DNA of 64,000 nucleotides from the NCBI GenBank assembly GCA_043781915.1, contig JAYWBA010000187.1, forward strand, positions 931-64,930, in the 5' to 3' direction. Below, piece by piece: positions 25,325 through 63,844 of the stretch (position 1 is the first letter of the stretch; each line of letters starts with the position of its first letter). The stretch is from Saprospiraceae bacterium (GTDB lineage Bacteria > Bacteroidota > Bacteroidia > Chitinophagales > Saprospiraceae). The notes beneath the pieces were generated by a model. It was given only the letters and a program-made list of their open reading frames with translations, was not told the DNA's origin and made no database searches. Position numbers and translations under genes: made by a program.

Positions 25325-27315
25325 CAGAAAAATTTACACCATTCGACGAAGCGCTCCGTGAAAAACTGGACGGTTACAACGACGTTGTAAATGATTCTGT
25401 TTTTGCGAAATTGCAAGCCAAACGTGCGTTACAACAAAAATTGAACGATGCTTCAAGTGTTGTGAATGCAGATTCTGTTTTTGCAAAATTGCAAGCCAAA
25501 CGCGCTTATCAACACCAATTGAGCGACGCGAGTAGCGAACTGCCCACTGCTGCTCTATTCGAAAACATCCAATTTAAACGCAATATTCAACAGAAATTAA
25601 ATAATACCACAACCGATGTGCCAAGTGGCATATTTGAAGACGTAGAATATCAGAAAGCTTTACAATCGAAAATAGACAGTGCAATGCCACCTGTTCGCAG
25701 CGTTTTGTTCGACCGTATGCAAGGAAAGCGCGTGCTTCAAAACAAACTCAACGATTATGAATCGCCAGTGAGTGCCAATTTATTCAACAAAATTCAAGTT
25801 GCTCGTAAAGAAAGGAAACCTAAATTTACTATTTACTATTGGGCAGCAGCGTGTGTTGCAGCTTGTTTGGTTTTATGGTTGCTGAGTACACAAATACAAG
25901 TCGGAAAAAATATAAAATCTGATAATAACACAAGCGCAAGCAATACGCATTCTCAAATACAAAACGGTAATACAATTTCTAAAGAAATTACTATACCAAA
26001 TACCGATTTAAAGCCTAATACCGAAACTCAAAAGCAAACACAAACTGACAATCAAATTTCTGACTCAGAAGGAAAAAATAACTTATCAAAACCAGAAGTA
26101 ACAAAAAATAGTAATAATTTTGAGCAGAAAGACAATTTAGCAACTGCTCAAAAACTCAATAGTGAAATTAAAGCGCCATCTAAAAAATTATCTGTTTTGG
26201 CAGGTCATGGAGCAATTTCGAGAATCGAAAGATCTAAAACTAAGACATCGGAAGAACAAATTGTTCGTTCGAATGACGGATTTGCCGCGCAATCTTTATC
26301 GACTAAGGAAGAAAAAACTATTCTAGAAGCATCTAAATCCTCTAAAAAATTAATTGTCGATAGCTCTGAAAATGCTGCGACTGTTGTAGATATAACAAAG
26401 CAACCAGAAATGGTTTCTCCATCTGAAATTCTAAATTCTCAGAATCCAAATTCACAAGTAAAAGGTGGTTCAAAAGGATTAGGATCAACTTCACTTGCAG
26501 CGCAGGAGTTGAATACGCAGCTTTATAAACGTGGCATTAAATCTTTAAAACCTAATAGTTTGTGCGGGGGACCTGGCGACGAATGTCCAACATTTGCTGG
26601 TGCGCGCTTACGCAATTATGTGCGTCCAGGCGTATTTTTTGAACCTTTTATGGGTGGTGCATTGATTAAGCGCACATTAACAGAAACCTCAACAGATTAC
26701 ACAGCTTATCGTCAAAAACGCGATTCCACAGAATCGTCTCAATATGCCATTCAAGCTGGTCTCATGTTGGGTTATCAATTCCGCAATGGATTTCATGCTT
26801 CAACTGGTATTCGCTACGAGCGTATTTCTGAAAAAGCAACTTATGATAGCATAGGTGTTGGTCAAATTTCCTATATTATTACCTTAACAGTACCACCTGA
26901 TACGTCGGCAAAAGTGCTTACTGATGGTATATTTAGAAAAACGCGTTTTAATACAGTTACGAGTTTTGAAATCCCGATCAGGTTGGGTTATACAATGGTT
27001 TTAAACAGATATTGGGCACTCGATTTAACGGCTTCTGCCGGTTTTAATTTTGCTACAACAACAAAGCAATCTGTTTATAATCCAGAAGGTGCATTAGTTG
27101 ATAACACGGATGTTTCAAATAATTATTTTAAGAAAACTTACGGTTGGTCAGGTGGTTTATCTGTGGGTGTAAGTCGTGCGTTGAGTGCCAACACACAACT
27201 CGTTTTGAGTGCTTATGGTAATTATAAAGTATCACCTGTTACAACAACTGATTACGTCTTAACACAGAAATATAGTACTTATGGTATTAATGCAGCATGG
27301 CGCTATCAATTTTAA
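25321..27315 (+). CDS. Sigma-coupled membrane protein: N-terminal ~25-aa repeats, one TM helix, low-complexity linker, C-terminal OM beta-barrel-like domain
   Basis: ATGA overlap with the sigma stop codon. About 6 repeats of F-x2-(L/I)Q-x-KR-x-(L/Y)Q-x-KLN. TM helix YYWAAACVAACLVLWLLS. The C-terminus ends in AAWRYQF. Confidence 0.6.
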   Translation: MTEKFTPFDEALREKLDGYNDVVNDSVFAKLQAKRALQQKLNDASSVVNADSVFAKLQAKRAYQHQLSDASSELPTAALFENIQFKRNIQQKLNNTTTDVPSGIFEDVEYQKALQSKIDSAMPPVRSVLFDRMQGKRVLQNKLNDYESPVSANLFNKIQVARKERKPKFTIYYWAAACVAACLVLWLLSTQIQVGKNIKSDNNTSASNTHSQIQNGNTISKEITIPNTDLKPNTETQKQTQTDNQISDSEGKNNLSKPEVTKNSNNFEQKDNLATAQKLNSEIKAPSKKLSVLAGHGAISRIERSKTKTSEEQIVRSNDGFAAQSLSTKEEKTILEASKSSKKLIVDSSENAATVVDITKQPEMVSPSEILNSQNPNSQVKGGSKGLGSTSLAAQELNTQLYKRGIKSLKPNSLCGGPGDECPTFAGARLRNYVRPGVFFEPFMGGALIKRTLTETSTDYTAYRQKRDSTESSQYAIQAGLMLGYQFRNGFHASTGIRYERISEKATYDSIGVGQISYIITLTVPPDTSAKVLTDGIFRKTRFNTVTSFEIPIRLGYTMVLNRYWALDLTASAGFNFATTTKQSVYNPEGALVDNTDVSNNYFKKTYGWSGGLSVGVSRALSANTQLVLSAYGNYKVSPVTTTDYVLTQKYSTYGINAAWRYQF

Positions 27316-27444
27316 TTTTTTAAAGTTCGAAGCAGCGTTTTTAACCCATTTTGCCTCTATAGAGTTAAATAGAAGTTAAAATTCAAAGTCTGTTTTTATC
27401 CCAAATTTTTAAAATATATAGACTATCGTGTTAAAATTATCGAC

Positions 27445-28536
27445 ATGTTAACTACATCAACATTTAAAAAATATTTCGGACTCCTTCAAATAATCGCAGT
27501 TATTGCACTGTGTGTTAGTTTAAATGCTTGTCAAAAAGATTCAAACGAGTTTATTCCAACAGGCACAAGAACAGAGAATACTGTTTACAAACCTGTTGAT
27601 ACCGCATTTGTTGAAGAAAGTAAACTCGGACCATTAGATACAACCAAACCACTTTCTGTTGAAAAATGTCAAAATGCTATTCCTAATATTGCACCATTTA
27701 CTGATACATTGACGGCTGAAAAAGGAAAAACGATTACCTTCCCTGACGGCACAATTGTTGAAATTCCTGCCAATGTTTGTACTAACAGCCCTGACGGAAA
27801 TAAAAACGGTGCTTGTAAAGGTCAGTTACGTGTTTTCATTTTAGTTTTAAAAACGCGTGGCGAGCTTATCACTTATAATGTTCCAACGGTTTCAGAAGGT
27901 GCTTTATTACAATCGGGTGGTGTGGTGTTTTTACAAGTCACTCAAAATGGCAAACCTGTATTTTTGCAAACAGGAAGTTATGTAAAAGTGCGTTATAAAA
28001 TGCCTGTTGTCTATACCGATATGAAATACTTTGAAGGTGATAATGATATAAATACGCGCCTTAATTTCGATTGGAAACTCATTGACGATAACAGAGGCGG
28101 CGGAAGCAATATGGATTCGGTTCGATTAAAAGCCTTTGATTATACAACTTATCAATTGTTGATTACGCGTTTTACGTGGGTTAATTGCGATCGTTTTTAT
28201 GCTGACAATACGCCCCTTTCAAAAAAATTAGCCGTTGCATTGCCCGATAGCTTTTCGAATCAAAACACATCTGTGTTTGTCGCTTTTACCGATGCGCTCA
28301 GTGTAGTGCGTTTGGTTGGCGATCCGAGTAAAAGAGCTTTTGTTATTCCAGGTAGCTATAAAGGCTTGCCAACGGGTAAACTAGGTATAGTAGTGACTAT
28401 TAGTTTATTGACTGTAAAAAATACGGATAGATATTATTTCAGCGCAACGCCTATTACTATTGGTGATAATACTGTAAAACCCCAACCTGGACTAATAACG
28501 CTTGATGGTATTCGACAAAAGCTATTGGCTTTATAA
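27445..28536 (+). CDS. Hypothetical lipoprotein
   Basis: Lipobox ALCVSLNAC. No family recognised. Confidence 0.45.
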   Translation: MLTTSTFKKYFGLLQIIAVIALCVSLNACQKDSNEFIPTGTRTENTVYKPVDTAFVEESKLGPLDTTKPLSVEKCQNAIPNIAPFTDTLTAEKGKTITFPDGTIVEIPANVCTNSPDGNKNGACKGQLRVFILVLKTRGELITYNVPTVSEGALLQSGGVVFLQVTQNGKPVFLQTGSYVKVRYKMPVVYTDMKYFEGDNDINTRLNFDWKLIDDNRGGGSNMDSVRLKAFDYTTYQLLITRFTWVNCDRFYADNTPLSKKLAVALPDSFSNQNTSVFVAFTDALSVVRLVGDPSKRAFVIPGSYKGLPTGKLGIVVTISLLTVKNTDRYYFSATPITIGDNTVKPQPGLITLDGIRQKLLAL

Positions 28537-28603
28537 AATAAATGTGTTTGTTTTAGTTTTTCATAATTCTGAGTTTAGTATAGTTTAGTAATCCCATGAA
28601 TAG

Positions 28604-28638
28604 ACTGCCCCCTACTTGTAGGGGGCAGTTTTTATTTT
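28604..28638 (+). terminator. Rho-independent terminator
   Basis: ACTGCCCCCTA-CTTG-TAGGGGGCAGT followed by TTTTATTTT. Confidence 0.75.
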
Positions 28639-30221
28639 GGCCTCACTTTAAGTCGCTCTTTTCTATCTGCAATTTCCCACGCCGTTAAAAAAGCAAATTG
28701 CGCACGTTTAACTAAAGCGTCGAAATTAATTTTATCAATAGTATCAGTCGGCTGATGATAGTCAGCATGTGTGCCATTAAATAAAAACATGACGGGGATA
28801 CCACGCTCGGCAAAATTGTAGTGGTCACTGCGGTAATAATAACGGTTCGGGTCGTTTTCATCGTTGTAAGTATAATCGAGTTTCAGTTTAGTGTAGCGTG
28901 CGTTCACTTCTTTATGAATGCGCTCCATGTCATCGCTCAATTTATCAGCGCCAATAACATACACATAATCGGCAGTATCTTTGTGCTGCGGGTCAATTCT
29001 ACCAATCATGTCGATATTAATATCAGCCACCGTTTTTTCAATCGGTATTTTCGGATGATTGACGTAATATTTTGAACCGAGCAAACCTTTTTCTTCACCC
29101 GTCATAAATAAGCACAGAATACTGCGTTTCGGCATTTTATGTTCTCTTTCGGCAGCACTAAACGCTTCGCACATCGCCATTAAACCCGATGAACCCGAAC
29201 CATTATCATCCGCCCCGTGATAAATGGTAGTGCCACGTTTACCCAGATGATCTAAATGACACGATACGATAACAATTTCTTTTTTCAAAAGGGGGTCAGA
29301 ACCTTCAAAAAACCCGAGAACGTTGCGACTAATTAATTGCGTCAGTAAGCGCGAAGTAGTGAAATTTATTTTCAATGGCAATTCAAACTTCGATTCAATC
29401 TTACCTCTTGCAGCTTGTTTAGAGTAGCTTTCTATTCTTTTTGAAAATCTTTTAAGCACAGAATCTGTCGCCGAAGGCGATAAATAAATATTAGGAATCA
29501 GAAATTGCGTCGGTGGCACATCGTCCATAGATGAGTTATAGTATAAACTCTTATCTGTTCGCGCATCTCTAGCAAAATTTTTATTTAAAAATATAACTCC
29601 CCGCGCACCATGTGCATAAGCGATACGAATTTTCATGGTCTTATCTTTCGACCAAACAGTGGCGCCTTTTTTACCCGTAGTCTGATTGATAGAATCTTTC
29701 GAAAACGGCTCGCCCGTTAAAATTAAAACAACTTTATCTTTCAAATTATTGCCGCGATAATCATTAAATTTTGGCGTTTCTATGCCATAACCTAAAAACA
29801 AAACCGAATCAGTGTTAATTGTATTTTCTTCTTCTGGATTTGCCTGCGTATAAGCAAAAAAATCGACCATATTGCGCAGCGGTTTATCATTCAATGAAGC
29901 AGTAAGTTTATTCCAAGAATCGTTTGTAAAAACAATGCGTTGAAAATACGAACCTGAATCGCCAATAGATGTAGCTTTTACATTTTGCATGTGGGCAGCA
30001 ATAAAATTAGCCGTTCGTTCATTGCCCACTTTACCTGTTTCGCGTCCTTCCAGCGAATCACTCGTCAGAACTTCTAAGAAACCATGTGTGTTTTGGGTTG
30101 TGATTAATTGAGAATATGGAAAACCGTCGGTTTGTGCTTGAATATAAATGGGGGAAAACAAAAATAAAGCTGCACAAAAAAATTTAATAATAAGTCTTTT
30201 GGTGGATAAAAGCCCGAGCAT
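28632..30221 (-). CDS. M28-family aminopeptidase with PA domain
   Basis: SCHLDHLG...GADDNGSGSSGLMAMCEAF...FMTGEEKGLLGSKYY...HYHQPTD: M28 zinc ligands. ATG at 30221 preferred. Confidence 0.8.
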   Translation of the reverse strand: MLGLLSTKRLIIKFFCAALFLFSPIYIQAQTDGFPYSQLITTQNTHGFLEVLTSDSLEGRETGKVGNERTANFIAAHMQNVKATSIGDSGSYFQRIVFTNDSWNKLTASLNDKPLRNMVDFFAYTQANPEEENTINTDSVLFLGYGIETPKFNDYRGNNLKDKVVLILTGEPFSKDSINQTTGKKGATVWSKDKTMKIRIAYAHGARGVIFLNKNFARDARTDKSLYYNSSMDDVPPTQFLIPNIYLSPSATDSVLKRFSKRIESYSKQAARGKIESKFELPLKINFTTSRLLTQLISRNVLGFFEGSDPLLKKEIVIVSCHLDHLGKRGTTIYHGADDNGSGSSGLMAMCEAFSAAEREHKMPKRSILCLFMTGEEKGLLGSKYYVNHPKIPIEKTVADINIDMIGRIDPQHKDTADYVYVIGADKLSDDMERIHKEVNARYTKLKLDYTYNDENDPNRYYYRSDHYNFAERGIPVMFLFNGTHADYHQPTDTIDKINFDALVKRAQFAFLTAWEIADRKERLKVRPK

Positions 30222-59668: not shown

Positions 59669-59681
59669 AGTTAAAATAAAA

Positions 59682-59707
59682 AAAGAGTTCCAGTTGAGGA
59701 ACTCTTT
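59682..59707 (-). terminator. Attenuator-type intrinsic terminator in the pheA leader
   Basis: Minus strand AAAGAGTTCC-TCAACT-GGAACTCTTT followed by TTTTATTTT. It ends about 14 nt before the pheA ATG. Confidence 0.55.
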
Positions 59708-59760
59708 GTGTTAGCTGAATATATTTTTCCATTCACAATGCACGAATCCTCTATTACAAG

Positions 59761-59808
59761 TTAGGTTGTATAATAGAAGAAACTAAATCGAGAAGCAGTG
59801 TGAAACAT
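59761..59808 (-). CDS. Candidate leader peptide MFHTASRFSFFYYTT
   Basis: 15-codon ORF with consecutive Phe-Phe-Tyr-Tyr codons, located between a promoter-like element and the terminator hairpin. Confidence 0.45.
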   Translation of the reverse strand: MFHTASRFSFFYYTT

Positions 59809-59827
59809 TATTTTATTATTTATGGTG

Positions 59828-59858
59828 CAAAGGTAATAGGTTAGTTTAAATTTCCAAA
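59828..59858 (-). promoter_or_regulatory. Bacteroidota-type promoter (TTTG-N19-TACCTTTG)
   Basis: Minus strand: TTTG at 59858-59855 and TACCTTTG at 59835-59828, with a 19-nt spacer. It sits about 20 nt upstream of the leader ATG. Confidence 0.45.
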
Positions 59859-59970
59859 TAAAATTACATTCTCGAATTATTTTAGCTATAAAAATATTAT
59901 GTTGATTTTTTTTAGCTATATTTGTAAGAGTTTAAAAAAGAGAAAAACTTTTTAAAAATCGGCAAATTGT

Positions 59971-62397
59971 ATGAACAAAGAATATGAAGAAGGCAGGAAA
60001 AAACTTGAAGAACTTATTGTTTGGAATAAGAAATTCGTTAATATAGATAGGAATGAAGATACAACTAGACTTCATTTAATTGACAGTCTCCTTTTTGATT
60101 GCCTAAACTGGAAAAAAGAAGATGTGATTACAGAAGAATCATTTGATGCAGAGTTCACCGACTACACTCTTCGTCTCCCACGCCCTTCAATTATTGTCGA
60201 AGCTAAAAGAGAGGGAAATTATTTTGAACTTCCTTCAGGTAAGAATAGAACTGAATATAATCTTTCAAATTTATGCAGGGATAATCCTGATTTAAAAAAA
60301 GCAGTCGAACAAGTTTCTGCATATTGCCAAAAAAGGGGTACCGAAATTGCAATTATTTCTAATGGTTGGCAATTAGTCTCGTTTGTTGCTGTTAGACTTG
60401 ATGGAATACCTCCTATCGAAGGTAAAGCTCTAGTTTATGACTCTTTAGAAAATATGTTAAGTAGGTTTACAGAATTTTGGAATCATTTATCATACGATGG
60501 TATAAGTAAAAAAATTCTAAAAACTCGATTATGTGGTACAATTATACCAGAATTGCCTACAAAACTATCTAGTATTATCTCAAATTACCCAGGTATCAAG
60601 AATAGAAATTCAAATCAAGCGGATTTACAAGTTTTAAGCGAAATAGTTTTTGAAGATGTTATAAAAACAGGGGAATTAGAGACAATATTTCTAGAAGAAT
60701 GCTACTGTAATGCTGGCGCTTTATCAAATTATTCTTCTCTTAGTAAAGATATTTTAAAACTAAGATATGAAAACTTTTTTGATACAGACTCTGAGAGTTT
60801 AGCCTTATCACCCGCATCAGGAAAAAAAGGTATTAATGAAGAACTAGTTAATGTTACCGCACAAAGCTTAAGCAGAAGACCAATTTTACTAATAGGTGAC
60901 GTTGGAGTTGGCAAATCGACTTTCATTAATTATTTAATAAAAGTCGAAGCTAAAGAAATTTTTGAAAACTGCATCACTTTTAAAATTGATTTAGGAAGTC
61001 AAGCTATTCTAGCTTCTAACTTGAATGAAGCTATTGTAGAAGAAATAATTAAGCAACTTTTAGACAATTACGATATAGATATTTTTGAAAACCACTTTGT
61101 TAGAGGTATTTATCATGGTGATTTTGAAAGATTTAAAAGGGGGGTTTACAAACCTTATTTCGAAAATAATCATGAAAAATCAATAGAAATTTCGATAGAA
61201 TTTTTTATTGAAAAGCAAAGAAATAAAGTAGAACATTTAAAAAACGCACTATTTCATCTCGCTAAAGGAAGAAAAAAACAAATTGTAATTTTTATAGACA
61301 ATTGCGATCAAAGAGAATATGACATTCAGCAGAAAGCTTTTTTAATTTCCAACGAAATAGCTGAACATTGGCAACCAGTAACTATTTTTTTAGCTTTACG
61401 TCCAGAAAGTTTTCATAATTCATTAAAAAAAGGATCTTTAACAGGATATCATCCCAAGGCATTTACGATTGCTCCGCCGAGAATTGATTTGGTAATTGAA
61501 AAAAGATTGGATTTTGCTAGAAAAATAGCAGAGGGAGAAATTCCATTGTCCCAATTCAATAAATCCGAAAATAAAGTTGGTATTCAATTATCGAATTTAA
61601 GTACTCTAATTCACGTTCTTATTTTTTCTTTGGAGAAGAATAAAGAACTACACAAATTTATTGAAGATATTTCTTGCGGAAATGTTCGGAAAGCTGTTGG
61701 GATGATTACTAATTTTTTGGGGAGTGGACATGTTGACACTAAAAAAATTATTCAAATTCAAGGAAATGGGGATAATTACATAATACCTCTGCATGAATTT
61801 TTTAACGCGGTAATTTATGGAGACAATATTCATTTTGACCCTAACAGTTCGCAAGTTTCAAATATTTTTGACATAAAATTTGACGATCCTAAGGAACATT
61901 TTTTAACACCAATTGTTTTAAGTATACTTGAATCACAATTGCAAGCTGTTAATAATAATGGATTTTTTGAAACATCTATTCTATCTAATCATTTGCAAAG
62001 TTTAGGATTTACAATCGATCAAATTGATATTGTATTAAGCGATTTAATTGAGAAGAATTTAATCGAGACCTCGGCTAGGGGTAGAGCCTTCACAAAAATT
62101 AATTTACCTCCGATGTTAAGACTCACTTCAACTGGCTCATATCATATCAATAATCTTTGTTCTTATTTCCCATATATTGATGCTATAATTGTCGATACTC
62201 CGATTTTCAAAGAAGCAAAAAATGAAATTAAAGATATTCATGGGATTATAAACAGGCTAGAAAGAGTTATTGTTTTCAAAAACTATCTCGATGAAATTTG
62301 GAAAAAATTTGATTCTCAGAAAACTTTTTTTAATTGGTCATCTAAATCAATTGAACTCCAAGCTGATATAAATAAAATTAAAGCAAAGCAATCTTAA
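59971..62397 (+). CDS. Fusion protein: HsdR-N/Mrr-like PD-(D/E)xK nuclease domain + P-loop NTPase + uncharacterised C-terminal region
   Basis: N-terminus NEDTTRLHLIDSLLFDCLNWKKEDVITEESFDAEFTDYTLRLPRPSIIVEAKREG...AVEQVSAYCQKRGTEIAIISNGWQLVSF. Walker A LLIGDVGVGKSTF. Walker B VIFIDNCDQRE. Visibly A+T-rich. Confidence 0.7.
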   Translation: MNKEYEEGRKKLEELIVWNKKFVNIDRNEDTTRLHLIDSLLFDCLNWKKEDVITEESFDAEFTDYTLRLPRPSIIVEAKREGNYFELPSGKNRTEYNLSNLCRDNPDLKKAVEQVSAYCQKRGTEIAIISNGWQLVSFVAVRLDGIPPIEGKALVYDSLENMLSRFTEFWNHLSYDGISKKILKTRLCGTIIPELPTKLSSIISNYPGIKNRNSNQADLQVLSEIVFEDVIKTGELETIFLEECYCNAGALSNYSSLSKDILKLRYENFFDTDSESLALSPASGKKGINEELVNVTAQSLSRRPILLIGDVGVGKSTFINYLIKVEAKEIFENCITFKIDLGSQAILASNLNEAIVEEIIKQLLDNYDIDIFENHFVRGIYHGDFERFKRGVYKPYFENNHEKSIEISIEFFIEKQRNKVEHLKNALFHLAKGRKKQIVIFIDNCDQREYDIQQKAFLISNEIAEHWQPVTIFLALRPESFHNSLKKGSLTGYHPKAFTIAPPRIDLVIEKRLDFARKIAEGEIPLSQFNKSENKVGIQLSNLSTLIHVLIFSLEKNKELHKFIEDISCGNVRKAVGMITNFLGSGHVDTKKIIQIQGNGDNYIIPLHEFFNAVIYGDNIHFDPNSSQVSNIFDIKFDDPKEHFLTPIVLSILESQLQAVNNNGFFETSILSNHLQSLGFTIDQIDIVLSDLIEKNLIETSARGRAFTKINLPPMLRLTSTGSYHINNLCSYFPYIDAIIVDTPIFKEAKNEIKDIHGIINRLERVIVFKNYLDEIWKKFDSQKTFFNWSSKSIELQADINKIKAKQS

Positions 62398-62419: not shown

Positions 62420-63037
62420 TTAAAACTCAATATTCTCATAAATATCTTCCAGCGCGATTTCGATGCCGAGCGAGCGTAAAGCTATGGTTTTATTCAAATC
62501 ATTTACAATTTCAGTTTCCCAACGATTATTGCTAACTATTAGTCTTGACTCAACTTGTGGTTTATTTTGCTCTATTAAAACATATTCTTTGAAAGAAGCT
62601 AATGTTTTATAGGCTTCAAATTTTTCGTCTCTGTCAAAATTTCGCGTGCCTTTCGATGCGACTTCAACAATTAAAATAGGGTTTGTAAGCAAACTTTTAG
62701 AACCGAATTTATACTCCAACTTTTCAAAGACGACTAAAACATCTGCATAAAATACAGCGTCAATTTCTGAAATATAAATACCCAAATTGCTATCAAAAAC
62801 TCTAAATTTCTTATTTGCGTTTTTGATAGCGTTTTTAATAGCAAATCCTGTGTTTATAGTTATTTCGCTGTGGCTACTTGTTCCTCCTGCCATAAGTTTG
62901 ATTTCTCCGTTATAGTATTCGTGTTTGTGTTTTGATTTTTCTTCGCGTGCGAGGTACTCCTCTAACGTGTAACGTTTCGGTTCTGAAACTTTCTTTTTTT
63001 CTGGCAATGATGCAATCGCAGATGTCATACGGTTCAA
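62420..63037 (-). CDS. Uma2-family (DUF820) endonuclease
   Basis: EYYNGEIKLMAGGTSSHSEI, ADVLVVF, PILIVEVASKGTRNFDRDEKFEAYKTLASFKEYVLIEQ. Confidence 0.75.
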   Translation of the reverse strand: MNRMTSAIASLPEKKKVSEPKRYTLEEYLAREEKSKHKHEYYNGEIKLMAGGTSSHSEITINTGFAIKNAIKNANKKFRVFDSNLGIYISEIDAVFYADVLVVFEKLEYKFGSKSLLTNPILIVEVASKGTRNFDRDEKFEAYKTLASFKEYVLIEQNKPQVESRLIVSNNRWETEIVNDLNKTIALRSLGIEIALEDIYENIEF

Positions 63038-63191
63038 ATTTTATTCAAAATTACGGTTAAAATATTTAATCGCCAAATGGGAAATAAATATCAACCTCTT
63101 ATTGCGTTTGAGAGCGTTTGAGCGAGAGATTGAAACTTTCAATTCCTTTAATTTTTTCATTTGGATTTTAAATGAGAGAAAAAACGTTTTG

Positions 63192-63314
63192 TTAAACGTA
63201 ACTTTTGTTTTTATGTTTAAATTTGCAAGTCGAATCCATTAAACGTAACTTTTATTGTTATGTTTTCGGTTATCATTTACATTTTCAAAACATAACAACG
63301 TAAGTTACGTTTAA
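63192..63314. promoter_or_regulatory. Three copies of a ~27-bp box upstream of the Rrf2 regulator (candidate operators)
   Basis: TTAAACGTAACTTTTGTTTTTATGTTT (63192-63218), TTAAACGTAACTTTTATTGTTATGTTT (63239-63265), and an inverted copy at 63287-63314 containing the palindrome AACGTAA-G-TTACGTT. Confidence 0.5.
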
Positions 63315-63335
63315 TGAAATCAAAACATTTTTTCA

Positions 63336-63764: not shown

Positions 63765-63844
63765 ATTTTCCCGCAAATTACTCAGATTATGCAGATTTTT
63801 TTTAGCGAAAATCTGCATAATCTGAGTAATCTGCGGAAAATTCC
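63765..63844. terminator. Long hairpin between convergent genes
   Basis: ATTACTCAGATTATGCAGATTTT pairs perfectly (23 bp) with AAAATCTGCATAATCTGAGTAAT. The stem extends further with mismatches. Confidence 0.75.

Follow-up and report, generated by a model that had tools for sequence, protein, structure and literature searches.

A distant relative of the anti-phage protein DS-14 in a Saprospiraceae genome, with a predicted HsdR-type nuclease and an ORC/Cdc6-like ATPase in one chain

That a single protein can join a nuclease to an NTPase for anti-phage defence is already established from Avs and bNACHT25, and in 2026 DS-14 was validated as well. DS-14 (working id RMOR; WP_040091717.1, 816 amino acids (aa)) is an E. 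coli protein from the DefensePredictor study of DeWeirdt, Mahoney and Laub (Science 2026, PMC13092281), where it is not named in the main text and its data are in supplementary tables. There it is a single coding sequence, a ‘hypothetical protein’ scored defensive (Table S6), which when expressed alone protects E. coli MG1655 from phages (Tables S6-S8), the -log10 efficiency of plating being 4.70 for Bas50, 3.70 for Candy and 1.15 for RB69 (Table S7). It is marked as replicated in Table S8, where HHpred gives it a PD-(D/E)xK domain (BpuSI_N) at aa 27-167 and an AAA+ domain (Orc1, 7MCA_A) at aa 270-569, and the authors’ HHblits places bNACHT09 as its nearest known defence protein, at 54% coverage. 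Considered here is P0001, an 808-aa protein encoded beside pheA in a stretch of 64,000 nucleotides from a Saprospiraceae bacterium (GenBank assembly GCA_043781915.1, contig JAYWBA010000187.1, positions 931 to 64,930 of the forward strand), hereafter the window. Its gene is an intact open reading frame (ORF) of 808 codons plus stop, and we think it probable, if some way from certain, that it is a distant DS-14-family single-protein system by which the Saprospiraceae host is protected from phages or from other DNA that invades it.

How close is the relationship? The portion of DS-14 given in Table S8, aa 1-399, matches P0001 from N28 to E332 (BLASTP, E 2e-27), matches 236 of the 269 family proteins and aligns with the family profile at an hhalign probability of 99.8%. 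As that portion is the DS-14 sequence available, the C-terminal half was compared via a full-length orthologue that is 87.5% identical to it, a ‘P-loop NTPase fold protein’ encoded on the Klebsiella pneumoniae plasmid NZ_CP129845.1. This orthologue is colinear with P0001 over aa 28-777 of the latter (E 1e-49, 24% identity in a 779-aa alignment) and reaches an hhalign probability of 100% against the family profile (E 2.6e-50, 712 columns). The motifs common to the two are D-N-x-D-Q, the LR after strand 4, the G-x-x-R of the lid, P-x-HE and N-x-FD and, in the C-terminal part, T-x-x-G-x-Y and D-T, and its Pfam pattern is like that of the P0001 family, with HSDR_N_2 and KAP barely above cutoff. 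It is this colinearity along the full length that makes P0001, by sequence comparison, a distant member of the DS-14 family. The two are also alike in being encoded by one gene with no obligatory partner, in length (816 versus 808 aa) and in the order of PD-(D/E)xK domain, linker, ORC-like AAA+ module and C-terminal region. However, the identity is 24-27% only, DS-14 belongs to Enterobacteriaceae with prophage and plasmid contexts whereas the clade of P0001 is environmental, and it is for DS-14 alone that phage protection has been shown. As a distant relative of a protein that blocks phages, the 808-aa gene is very probably a defence gene, which is what the initial annotation, made from the letters alone, had proposed in calling it a candidate stand-alone nuclease-NTPase defence gene. 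Since the family includes DS-14 the gene is less novel than was then assumed, though the mechanism of DS-14 is not given in PMC13092281 and to that extent the interest survives.

The N-terminal part of P0001 is predicted, from sequence and from modelling, to be a PD-(D/E)xK nuclease of the HsdR-N/BpuSI type. The motifs from which an HsdR-N/Mrr-type fold had been read at the outset are all present in the translation, i.e., TTRLHLIDSLLFDCLNW at aa 31-47, DYTL at 64-67, IIVEAK at 74-79, QVSAY at 114-118 and ISNGWQ at 129-134. In a sample of 211 full-length homologues, with identity to P0001 down to 26%, 15 residues are invariant: D64, Y65, E77, K79, Q114, Y118 and N131 near the N-terminus, and G309, G314, K315, D443, N444, D446, R512 and N631 further on. 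Such invariance argues that the motifs are not chance matches, and that the nuclease and the nucleotide site are both under strict selection. Pfam detects the nuclease at the level of the family, HSDR_N_2 matching 13 of 20 homologues (best E 6e-5) and HSDR_N nine of them, and not with P0001’s own sequence. When aa 1-290 are modelled alone with AlphaFold the core is confident, the predicted local distance difference test score (pLDDT) being >85 for aa 1-190, and the top Foldseek neighbours in the PDB are nuclease domains, those of Vibrio HsdR (3h1t), BpuSI (3s1s) and EcoR124I HsdR. In the secondary structure of the full-length model D64 and E77-x-K79 are on central strands and Q114..Y118 on the next helix. 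With HsdR of type I restriction-modification (R-M) systems (PF04313/PF13588; 3h1t, 2w00) and with BpuSI (3s1s) the protein thus has in common the nuclease fold and the D...ExK and QxxxY residues, but it is without the superfamily 2 helicase motor and without HsdM and HsdS, and an AAA+ switch would drive the nuclease instead. Pfam finds no ResIII, DEAD or helicase match in P0001, and methylase or specificity genes are not adjacent. Between nuclease and ATPase is a linker, aa 157-289, with invariant or near-invariant residues among the 211 homologues (P196, K198, Y206-P207-G208, R212-N213 and C244-Y245); its part may be in regulation or in docking.

The Walker motifs reported initially are likewise where they were said to be, with the P-loop residues invariant: Walker A is GDVGVGKST at aa 309-317 (core aa 309-316, positions 60895-60918) and Walker B is VIFIDNCDQ at aa 439-447, within the pattern hhhhD443-N444-x-D446-Q-R at aa 439-448 (61285-61314). 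The D-N-x-D-Q-R is present in all 211 homologues and D-N-x-D-Q also in the DS-14 orthologue. AAA+ ATPases, initiators included, normally carry a catalytic Glu where the Walker B of P0001 has Asn, and the invariant Asn suggests that the module is no translocating motor but a switch that hydrolyses slowly; it could also mean one that is natively deficient in hydrolysis. The base of the module has, in addition, R477 after strand 4 (kept in 209 of the homologues) and a helical insert of ~95 aa between strands 2 and 3. In the lid are P502-P503, the invariant R512 and a sensor-2-like G570-N571-x-R573 (R573 in 208/211), which we take to be comparable to the Cdc6 ‘F-x-P-Y...R’ and the sensor-2 ‘G-D-x-R’; the R477-P and D-x-x-D features presumably recall NACHT proteins. 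The joint presence of Cdc6-like and NACHT-like features is the reason for placing the ATPase module in the ORC/Cdc6-STAND superclade.

To what known proteins is the whole chain most similar? P0001 itself gives nothing above the thresholds of Pfam, NCBIfam or PADLOC, its Pfam matches being weak, sub-threshold and to P-loops only (AAA_22, AAA_16, ATPase_2 and KAP), so that the PADLOC run recommended with the initial annotation yielded no assignment. Searches of PDB sequences with P0001 and with the family profile returned P-loop noise only and no Cdc6/ORC match at the sequence level, and a search of a viral structure library gave nothing beyond generic AAA+ and clamp-loader matches. Structure prediction, the other route that had been recommended for classing the NTPase, gave an answer. 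The full-length AlphaFold model has a mean pLDDT of 80.6 and a predicted template-modelling score of 0.73, and with it Foldseek ranks 1-17 are all Cdc6/Orc chains, including Orc4, Orc1, Cdc6 and Aeropyrum ORC2, with archaeal Cdc6 (1fnn) the best at E 2e-6 and the last of the 17 at 7e-5; the next matches are NLR/STAND proteins, NRC3, NRC2, NOD2 and Dark (E 7e-5 to 1e-3). It is to Cdc6/Orc structures that the model comes nearest in its AAA+ base, its lid and its C-terminal winged helix taken together. Archaeal Cdc6/Orc1 and eukaryotic ORC (1fnn, 1w5s, 2qby, 7tji and 7jpq, E 2e-6 to 1e-4) are thus the best structural matches and have the same succession of base, lid and winged helix, with Cdc6-like lid motifs in the P0001 family, but P0001 has an added N-terminal nuclease, a 130-aa linker and the Arg after strand 4, and its gene is accessory and not a replication gene.

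The last ~330 aa had matched nothing recognised and had been thought to be either a sensor or a winged helix-turn-helix region. In the model the segment is made up of the AAA+ lid, a winged-helix-like region and a helical tail, which together come to ~300 aa, with ~200 aa only beyond the lid. The winged-helix-like region includes H608 (conserved in 199 of 211), N631, a predicted helix-turn-helix at ~668-694 and a beta wing at ~698-718; neither the model nor Pfam reveals a repeat sensor (TPR, LRR or WD40) in the C-terminus. Conservation is even along the chain, the mean entropy being 1.8-2.4 bits in every domain, so that the family has no hypervariable sensor.

The family is large and widely spread. 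There are at least 983 homologues of ~800 aa at 47-63% identity to P0001, and clustering at 50% identity gives 1,880 clusters at E <= 1e-3 and 520 at E <= 1e-30, with the full-length architecture retained down to 26-28% identity. The clade of P0001 is environmental and patchy across phyla (Bacteroidota, Cyanobacteria, Planctomycetota, Desulfobacterota and others), with members in Flexithrix, Neolewinella, Gracilimonas, Microcoleus, Syntrophobacteraceae, Phycisphaerae and Omnitrophota. Neolewinella belongs to the Saprospiraceae too, but its copy, 50% identical to P0001, is no closer than copies from Planctomycetota or Desulfobacterota, which indicates horizontal spread.

Does the family travel with a companion gene or with one kind of mobile element? 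No recurring partner gene was found across ten independent contexts, and a conserved partner was rejected on comparing the same-strand downstream ORFs of two of them (L001 and L005), which are mutually unrelated. The homologue in Flexithrix (L001) has an integrase and an OLD/TOPRIM ATPase (OLD nuclease) for neighbours, that of L005 an MmeI-type R-M system nearby, that of L055 an integrase, a deaminase and AbiEii/AbiEi, that of L054 an IS200 transposase and a DUF559 gene, and those of L003, L006 and L052 housekeeping genes. In L053 the homologue is found where a prophage ends, beside the gene of a cI-like repressor and a type I R-M operon (HsdR, HsdS and HsdM). The operon has the GmrSD type IV enzyme inserted in it, and with the homologue next to it the whole (L053:10782-18415) is a compact defence island. 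Relatives are on four of 2.9 million IMG/VR contigs, one of which (L049) is a lambdoid prophage with the homologue in a classic cargo slot between a Q-like antiterminator and terminase, and in 30 plasmid records, 14 of them conjugative, the closest being a Shewanella plasmid at 41% identity; none of 50,697 records of sequenced phage genomes carries a relative. The Klebsiella orthologue of DS-14 is at 26510-28954 of its IncFIB plasmid (L082), among phage-like genes; around it are genes for an N6-adenine methyltransferase, a 3'-5' exonuclease, RNase HI and an ASCH protein, surroundings that suggest a phage-plasmid or prophage-derived region.

A lone gene that is carried on plasmids and prophages, has solitary copies between housekeeping genes and specifies an ORC/Cdc6-like ATPase with a winged helix could serve ends other than immunity. 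It could maintain mobile DNA, by addiction, by exclusion of competitors or by ORC-like initiation of replication or segregation, or it could be a DNA-repair nuclease. We regard this as very improbable. The homologues are not tied to any single element type, nor to replication or partition genes, and this, with the protection that the family member DS-14 alone gives to E. coli MG1655, makes a non-immune role unlikely; that the gene is missing from close relatives also speaks against such a role.

That last point comes from the pheA locus. The 808-aa gene, and with it the Uma2 and Rrf2 genes that are beside it in the window, is not within reach of any of 37 pheA loci from species-representative genomes, among them those of the two nearest relatives, L007 (PheA 88% identical) and L056 (operon proteins 85-92% identical). 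By blastn the DNA of the window is 82.5% and 80.6% identical to that of L007 and L056 up to positions 59865 and 59863, respectively, and there, ~105 bp ahead of the ATG of the 808-aa gene, homology breaks off. The gene is neither core nor syntenic, and the check on its presence or absence among relatives proposed with the initial annotation so comes out in favour of an accessory gene. Four other metagenome contigs encode an identical protein, in the order pheA, gene, Uma2, Rrf2, nitroreductase and YceI. In both relatives a uvrD-type helicase gene, one that is not within the window, is on the far side of the pheA spacer. In L007 the spacer between pheA and uvrD (1677-2002) is essentially empty; in L056 (300-2072) it has an Imm33 immunity gene (PF09951, E 1.5e-25) and an overlapping pair of 81 and 101 codons, the second specifying a toxin that is ParE-like by a match right at the Pfam cutoff (E 1.4e-4); and in the window the spacer after pheA, 59669-59970, leads into the DS-14-like gene and Uma2. 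Because the three contents differ, the site beside pheA is a small hotspot for accessory conflict genes in the present Saprospiraceae lineage.

What, then, might the protein do? From the anatomy and its conservation we infer a course of events that runs from autoinhibition through cue, oligomerisation and substrate to the outcome for the cell. At rest P0001 would be an autoinhibited monomer, its ORC/NLR-type AAA+ module nucleotide-bound and its N-terminal nuclease held apart or occluded by the linker (aa 157-289) and the winged-helix region. An infection cue would be sensed by the compact C-terminal winged-helix/helical part, and would set off ATP-dependent self-assembly via AAA+ interfaces to which R477, R512 and R573 may contribute. 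Assembly would juxtapose the HsdR-type PD-(D/E)xK domains, and double-stranded DNA of the phage, possibly also of the host, would be cut; the Asn of the D-N-x-D Walker B would make for a slow-hydrolysing switch. As to the cue, a feature of the invading nucleic acid is somewhat likelier than a phage protein. The former is favoured because the winged-helix C-terminus is small and evenly conserved and the fold Cdc6-like, the latter because of the analogy with bNACHT25 and Avs and because of the narrow phage range of DS-14. Each of these cues has a fuller alternative attached to it.

If the protein sensed DNA directly it could be an ATP-dependent restriction enzyme, akin to type IV enzymes or to an ‘ORC-loader’, with neither killing of the cell nor a protein trigger: the AAA+ ring, with the winged helix, would be loaded on DNA marked by something that the host lacks, e.g., a modified base, a free end or an intermediate of replication, and the DNA would then be cleaved directly. 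The closest folds are indeed those of DNA-loading initiators, Cdc6 and Orc1/4, winged helix included; the sensor-2-like and Cdc6-like motifs of the lid, the evenly conserved and repeat-free ~200 aa at the C-terminal end, and the lack of a methyltransferase partner in the homologue contexts examined would all suit it, and homologues are called ‘predicted type IV restriction endonuclease’ in JGI and in one plasmid record. The phages listed for DS-14 are, besides Bas50, Candy and RB69, which group with T4 in the rows of other systems. However, there is no T4 row for DS-14 in Table S7, a table that apparently lists only visibly affected phages, and this casts doubt on a simple recognition of modified cytosine. 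Against a processive motor there is the Walker B Asn, DNA binding by P0001 is a prediction of the model, and HHblits as run by the authors put the NLR-like bNACHT09 nearest to DS-14. Taken together these leave direct restriction of this kind a possibility that we would not favour.

Could P0001 instead be an abortive-infection receptor in the manner of NLR and Avs proteins, its C-terminus binding a conserved phage protein, oligomerisation being like that of Avs3/4 or bNACHT25, and the nuclease degrading all DNA in the cell? The order of effector, NTPase and C-terminal region is that of the nuclease-bearing Avs proteins and of bNACHT25, and to this extent the STAND logic discerned initially stands. 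The likeness extends to Avs3, Avs4 and Avs7 in the N-terminal PD-(D/E)xK effector, the ORC/STAND-superclade NTPase and the union of sensor and effector in one protein. In bNACHT25 an Mrr-like restriction endonuclease (REase) is fused to a NACHT module, and the toxicity of a hyperactive allele depends on the nuclease being intact (Kibby et al., bioRxiv 10.1101/2022.07.19.500537). The STAND proteins NRC2/3, NOD2 and Dark are significant fold matches of P0001, and the phages affected by DS-14 are few. Conserved in the family are D443-N-x-D446, R477 (the Arg after strand 4) and H608, features that may correspond to the NLR extended Walker B, sensor-1 Arg and winged-helix His. Against this are the top folds, Cdc6/ORC and not NLR; the lack of a TPR, LRR or WD40 sensor in the short region beyond the lid; and a C-terminus strongly conserved across hosts that have unrelated phages. 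Neither P0001 nor the Klebsiella orthologue matches a PADLOC v2.0.0 (2023) model of the Avs or NLR families. Avs membership was rejected, there being no match to an Avs profile at E <= 1 in PADLOC-DB v2.0.0 and no TPR-like sensor, and Avs proteins are also much longer than the 808 aa of P0001. Membership of the bNACHT group was rejected too, as the match to Pfam NACHT (PF05729) covers no more than the P-loop and, at E 0.2 and 11.9 bits, is below the cutoff of 26.7, and as there is no PADLOC NLR_like match at all. A receptor of this sort is thus conceivable, with the balance of our judgement against it.

A related, and rather speculative, idea concerns the whole DS-14 family, DS-14 included. 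It may be that these proteins are ‘origin-recognition-like’ immune nucleases, in which an ORC/Cdc6-type switch, natively slowed by the invariant Glu-to-Asn change of Walker B, loads via the winged helix directly on some general structural feature of foreign DNA that is invading or replicating, and assembles its HsdR-type nuclease domains at that place. We hold this to be improbable as it stands, but if true it would be innate immunity through the sensing of DNA structure, with neither methylation marks nor a protein trigger.

Several considerations tell against the defence reading preferred here, that of a distant DS-14-family protein with a slow AAA+ switch. Identity to DS-14 is 24%, protection has been shown in one enterobacterial member, in E. 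coli, and in the main text of PMC13092281 no mechanism is put forward for it. In three of the ten contexts the neighbours are simply housekeeping genes. The high and even conservation, ~50% identity between phyla, is atypical of a fast-evolving immune sensor. The TM-scores are modest, 0.4-0.5 against whole Cdc6 and 0.33-0.49 for the Cdc6/Orc chains when normalised by target, and the N-terminal Foldseek matches are individually weak (E ~0.03, probability 0.97-0.98) and modest as support, if mutually consistent. And the Walker B Asn could instead signal an unusual catalytic arrangement and not slow hydrolysis.

Other systems bear comparison as well. The Aravind group has predicted conflict systems that pair ORC/Cdc6-clade ATPases with REases, namely BrxC, SspC, HerA-capture and CR-effector relatives (PMC10853773, PMC12839542). 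They resemble P0001 in having an ORC/Cdc6 AAA+ module with a winged helix-turn-helix, and restriction-fold nucleases, in mobile defence loci, but they are multi-gene, or have an inactive REase inserted before the winged helix-turn-helix, or have a C-terminal REase, and none matches the N-terminal HsdR-N nuclease of P0001 in a lone gene of ~800 codons. Tiamat, described as a GHL ATPase (10.64898/2026.09.30.754977), was considered and rejected, as P0001 is a P-loop AAA+ protein and has no TmtA match in PADLOC. Literature searches for the architecture of P0001 found no description of the family beyond the DS-14 data in the supplements of PMC13092281.

With DS-14 published, the interest of P0001 is that with it a defence family so far validated only in E. 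coli gains a branch that is distant and environmental, and that what is left to explain is a mechanism: the strictly conserved D-N-x-D Walker B, and possible direct sensing of foreign DNA by an ORC-type loader. The architecture of DS-14 reaches Bacteroidota, Cyanobacteria, Planctomycetota, Desulfobacterota and others with active sites and D-N-x-D kept, and even conservation together with the small winged-helix C-terminus narrows the possible triggers. The residues D64/E77/K79, K315, D443/N444/D446, R477, R512, R573, H608 and N631 provide a map for mutagenesis, ‘hypothetical proteins’ of the family can be annotated as DS-14-like, and the locus reveals the small hotspot for accessory genes by pheA. 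The features of the gene and its borders are collected in Table 1.

Table 1. Positions in the window of the 808-aa gene, its predicted domains and adjoining features
Feature	Position	Strand	Basis
Complete gene P0001	59971..62397	+	Start agrees with homologues in alignment
Predicted HsdR-N/BpuSI-type PD-(D/E)xK nuclease domain, aa 28-156	60052..60438	+	Pfam on homologues, Foldseek, invariant residues
Predicted nuclease catalytic codons D64, E77 and K79 (QxxxY is Q114..Y118)	60160-60162, 60199-60201, 60205-60207	+	
Conserved helical linker, aa 157-289	60439..60837	+	Conservation; low pLDDT when modelled alone
AAA+ nucleotide-binding base, aa 290-500	60838..61470	+	Weak P-loop matches, model, Foldseek, conservation
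AAA+ lid, helical bundle, aa 501-598	61471..61764	+	Model, Foldseek, conservation
Winged-helix-like region, aa 599-720	61765..62130	+	Model secondary structure; whole Cdc6/Orc chains align; conservation
C-terminal helical tail, aa 721-808 (Y735, D737, D742, R762, Y772)	62131..62394	+	Model, conservation
Uma2 neighbour	62420..63037	-	Pfam PF05685, E 2.3e-26
Left edge of variable segment, end of DNA homology to L007/L056	59863..59865	.	blastn
Candidate own promoter, Bacteroidota-type -7 box TATATTTG	59917..59924	+	47 nt upstream of ATG; read from sequence

The immediate surroundings are as the initial annotation had them. It described the gene as monocistronic, A+T-rich relative to the pheA operon and flanked by a Uma2 endonuclease gene. 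Upstream, across a spacer of 302 bp, pheA is divergent, and downstream Uma2 is convergent with 22 bp between the two stop codons, so that the 808-aa gene is its own transcription unit. At 30.2% G+C it is below both the mean of the window, 36.3%, and the four pheA-operon genes, which have 38.6-42.1%, and is within the lowest 1.6% of 2.4-kb windows across the 64 kb. In PADLOC the Uma2 gene, for its part, has a match to PDC-S03, a candidate single-gene system (E 2.3e-19). As a partner it was rejected: among the contexts examined Uma2 adjoins the 808-aa gene in the present population alone, and as homologues elsewhere are unlinked to it the two are neighbours and not partners.

The consensus of the Bacteroidota -7 box is TAnnTTTG, and the candidate box listed in the table has a repeat running into it. 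This is an imperfect tandem direct repeat at 59858-59917, with 30-nt units that are 73% identical and end in TTTTAGCT(ATA); it begins exactly at the end of homology to the relatives, and could be an operator or an insertion scar. A 21-nt direct repeat with 19 of 21 positions matching, ATTATGTTGATTTTTTTTAGC at 59896-59916 and ATTATGCAGATTTTTTTTAGC at 63786-63806, flanks a 3.9-kb block with the DS-14-like gene, Uma2 and Rrf2, and its copies may be the ends of an inserted islet, or may match by chance, the sequence being T-rich. At 63187-63321, ahead of the Rrf2 gene, a box of ~27-35 nt (TTAAACGTAAC...) is present in direct and inverted copies and is probably an Rrf2 operator. Directly after that gene comes a near-perfect inverted repeat of 33 nt (63767-63840, 94% complementary, 8-nt loop), in all probability either a repeat element or a terminator, and then a strong one.

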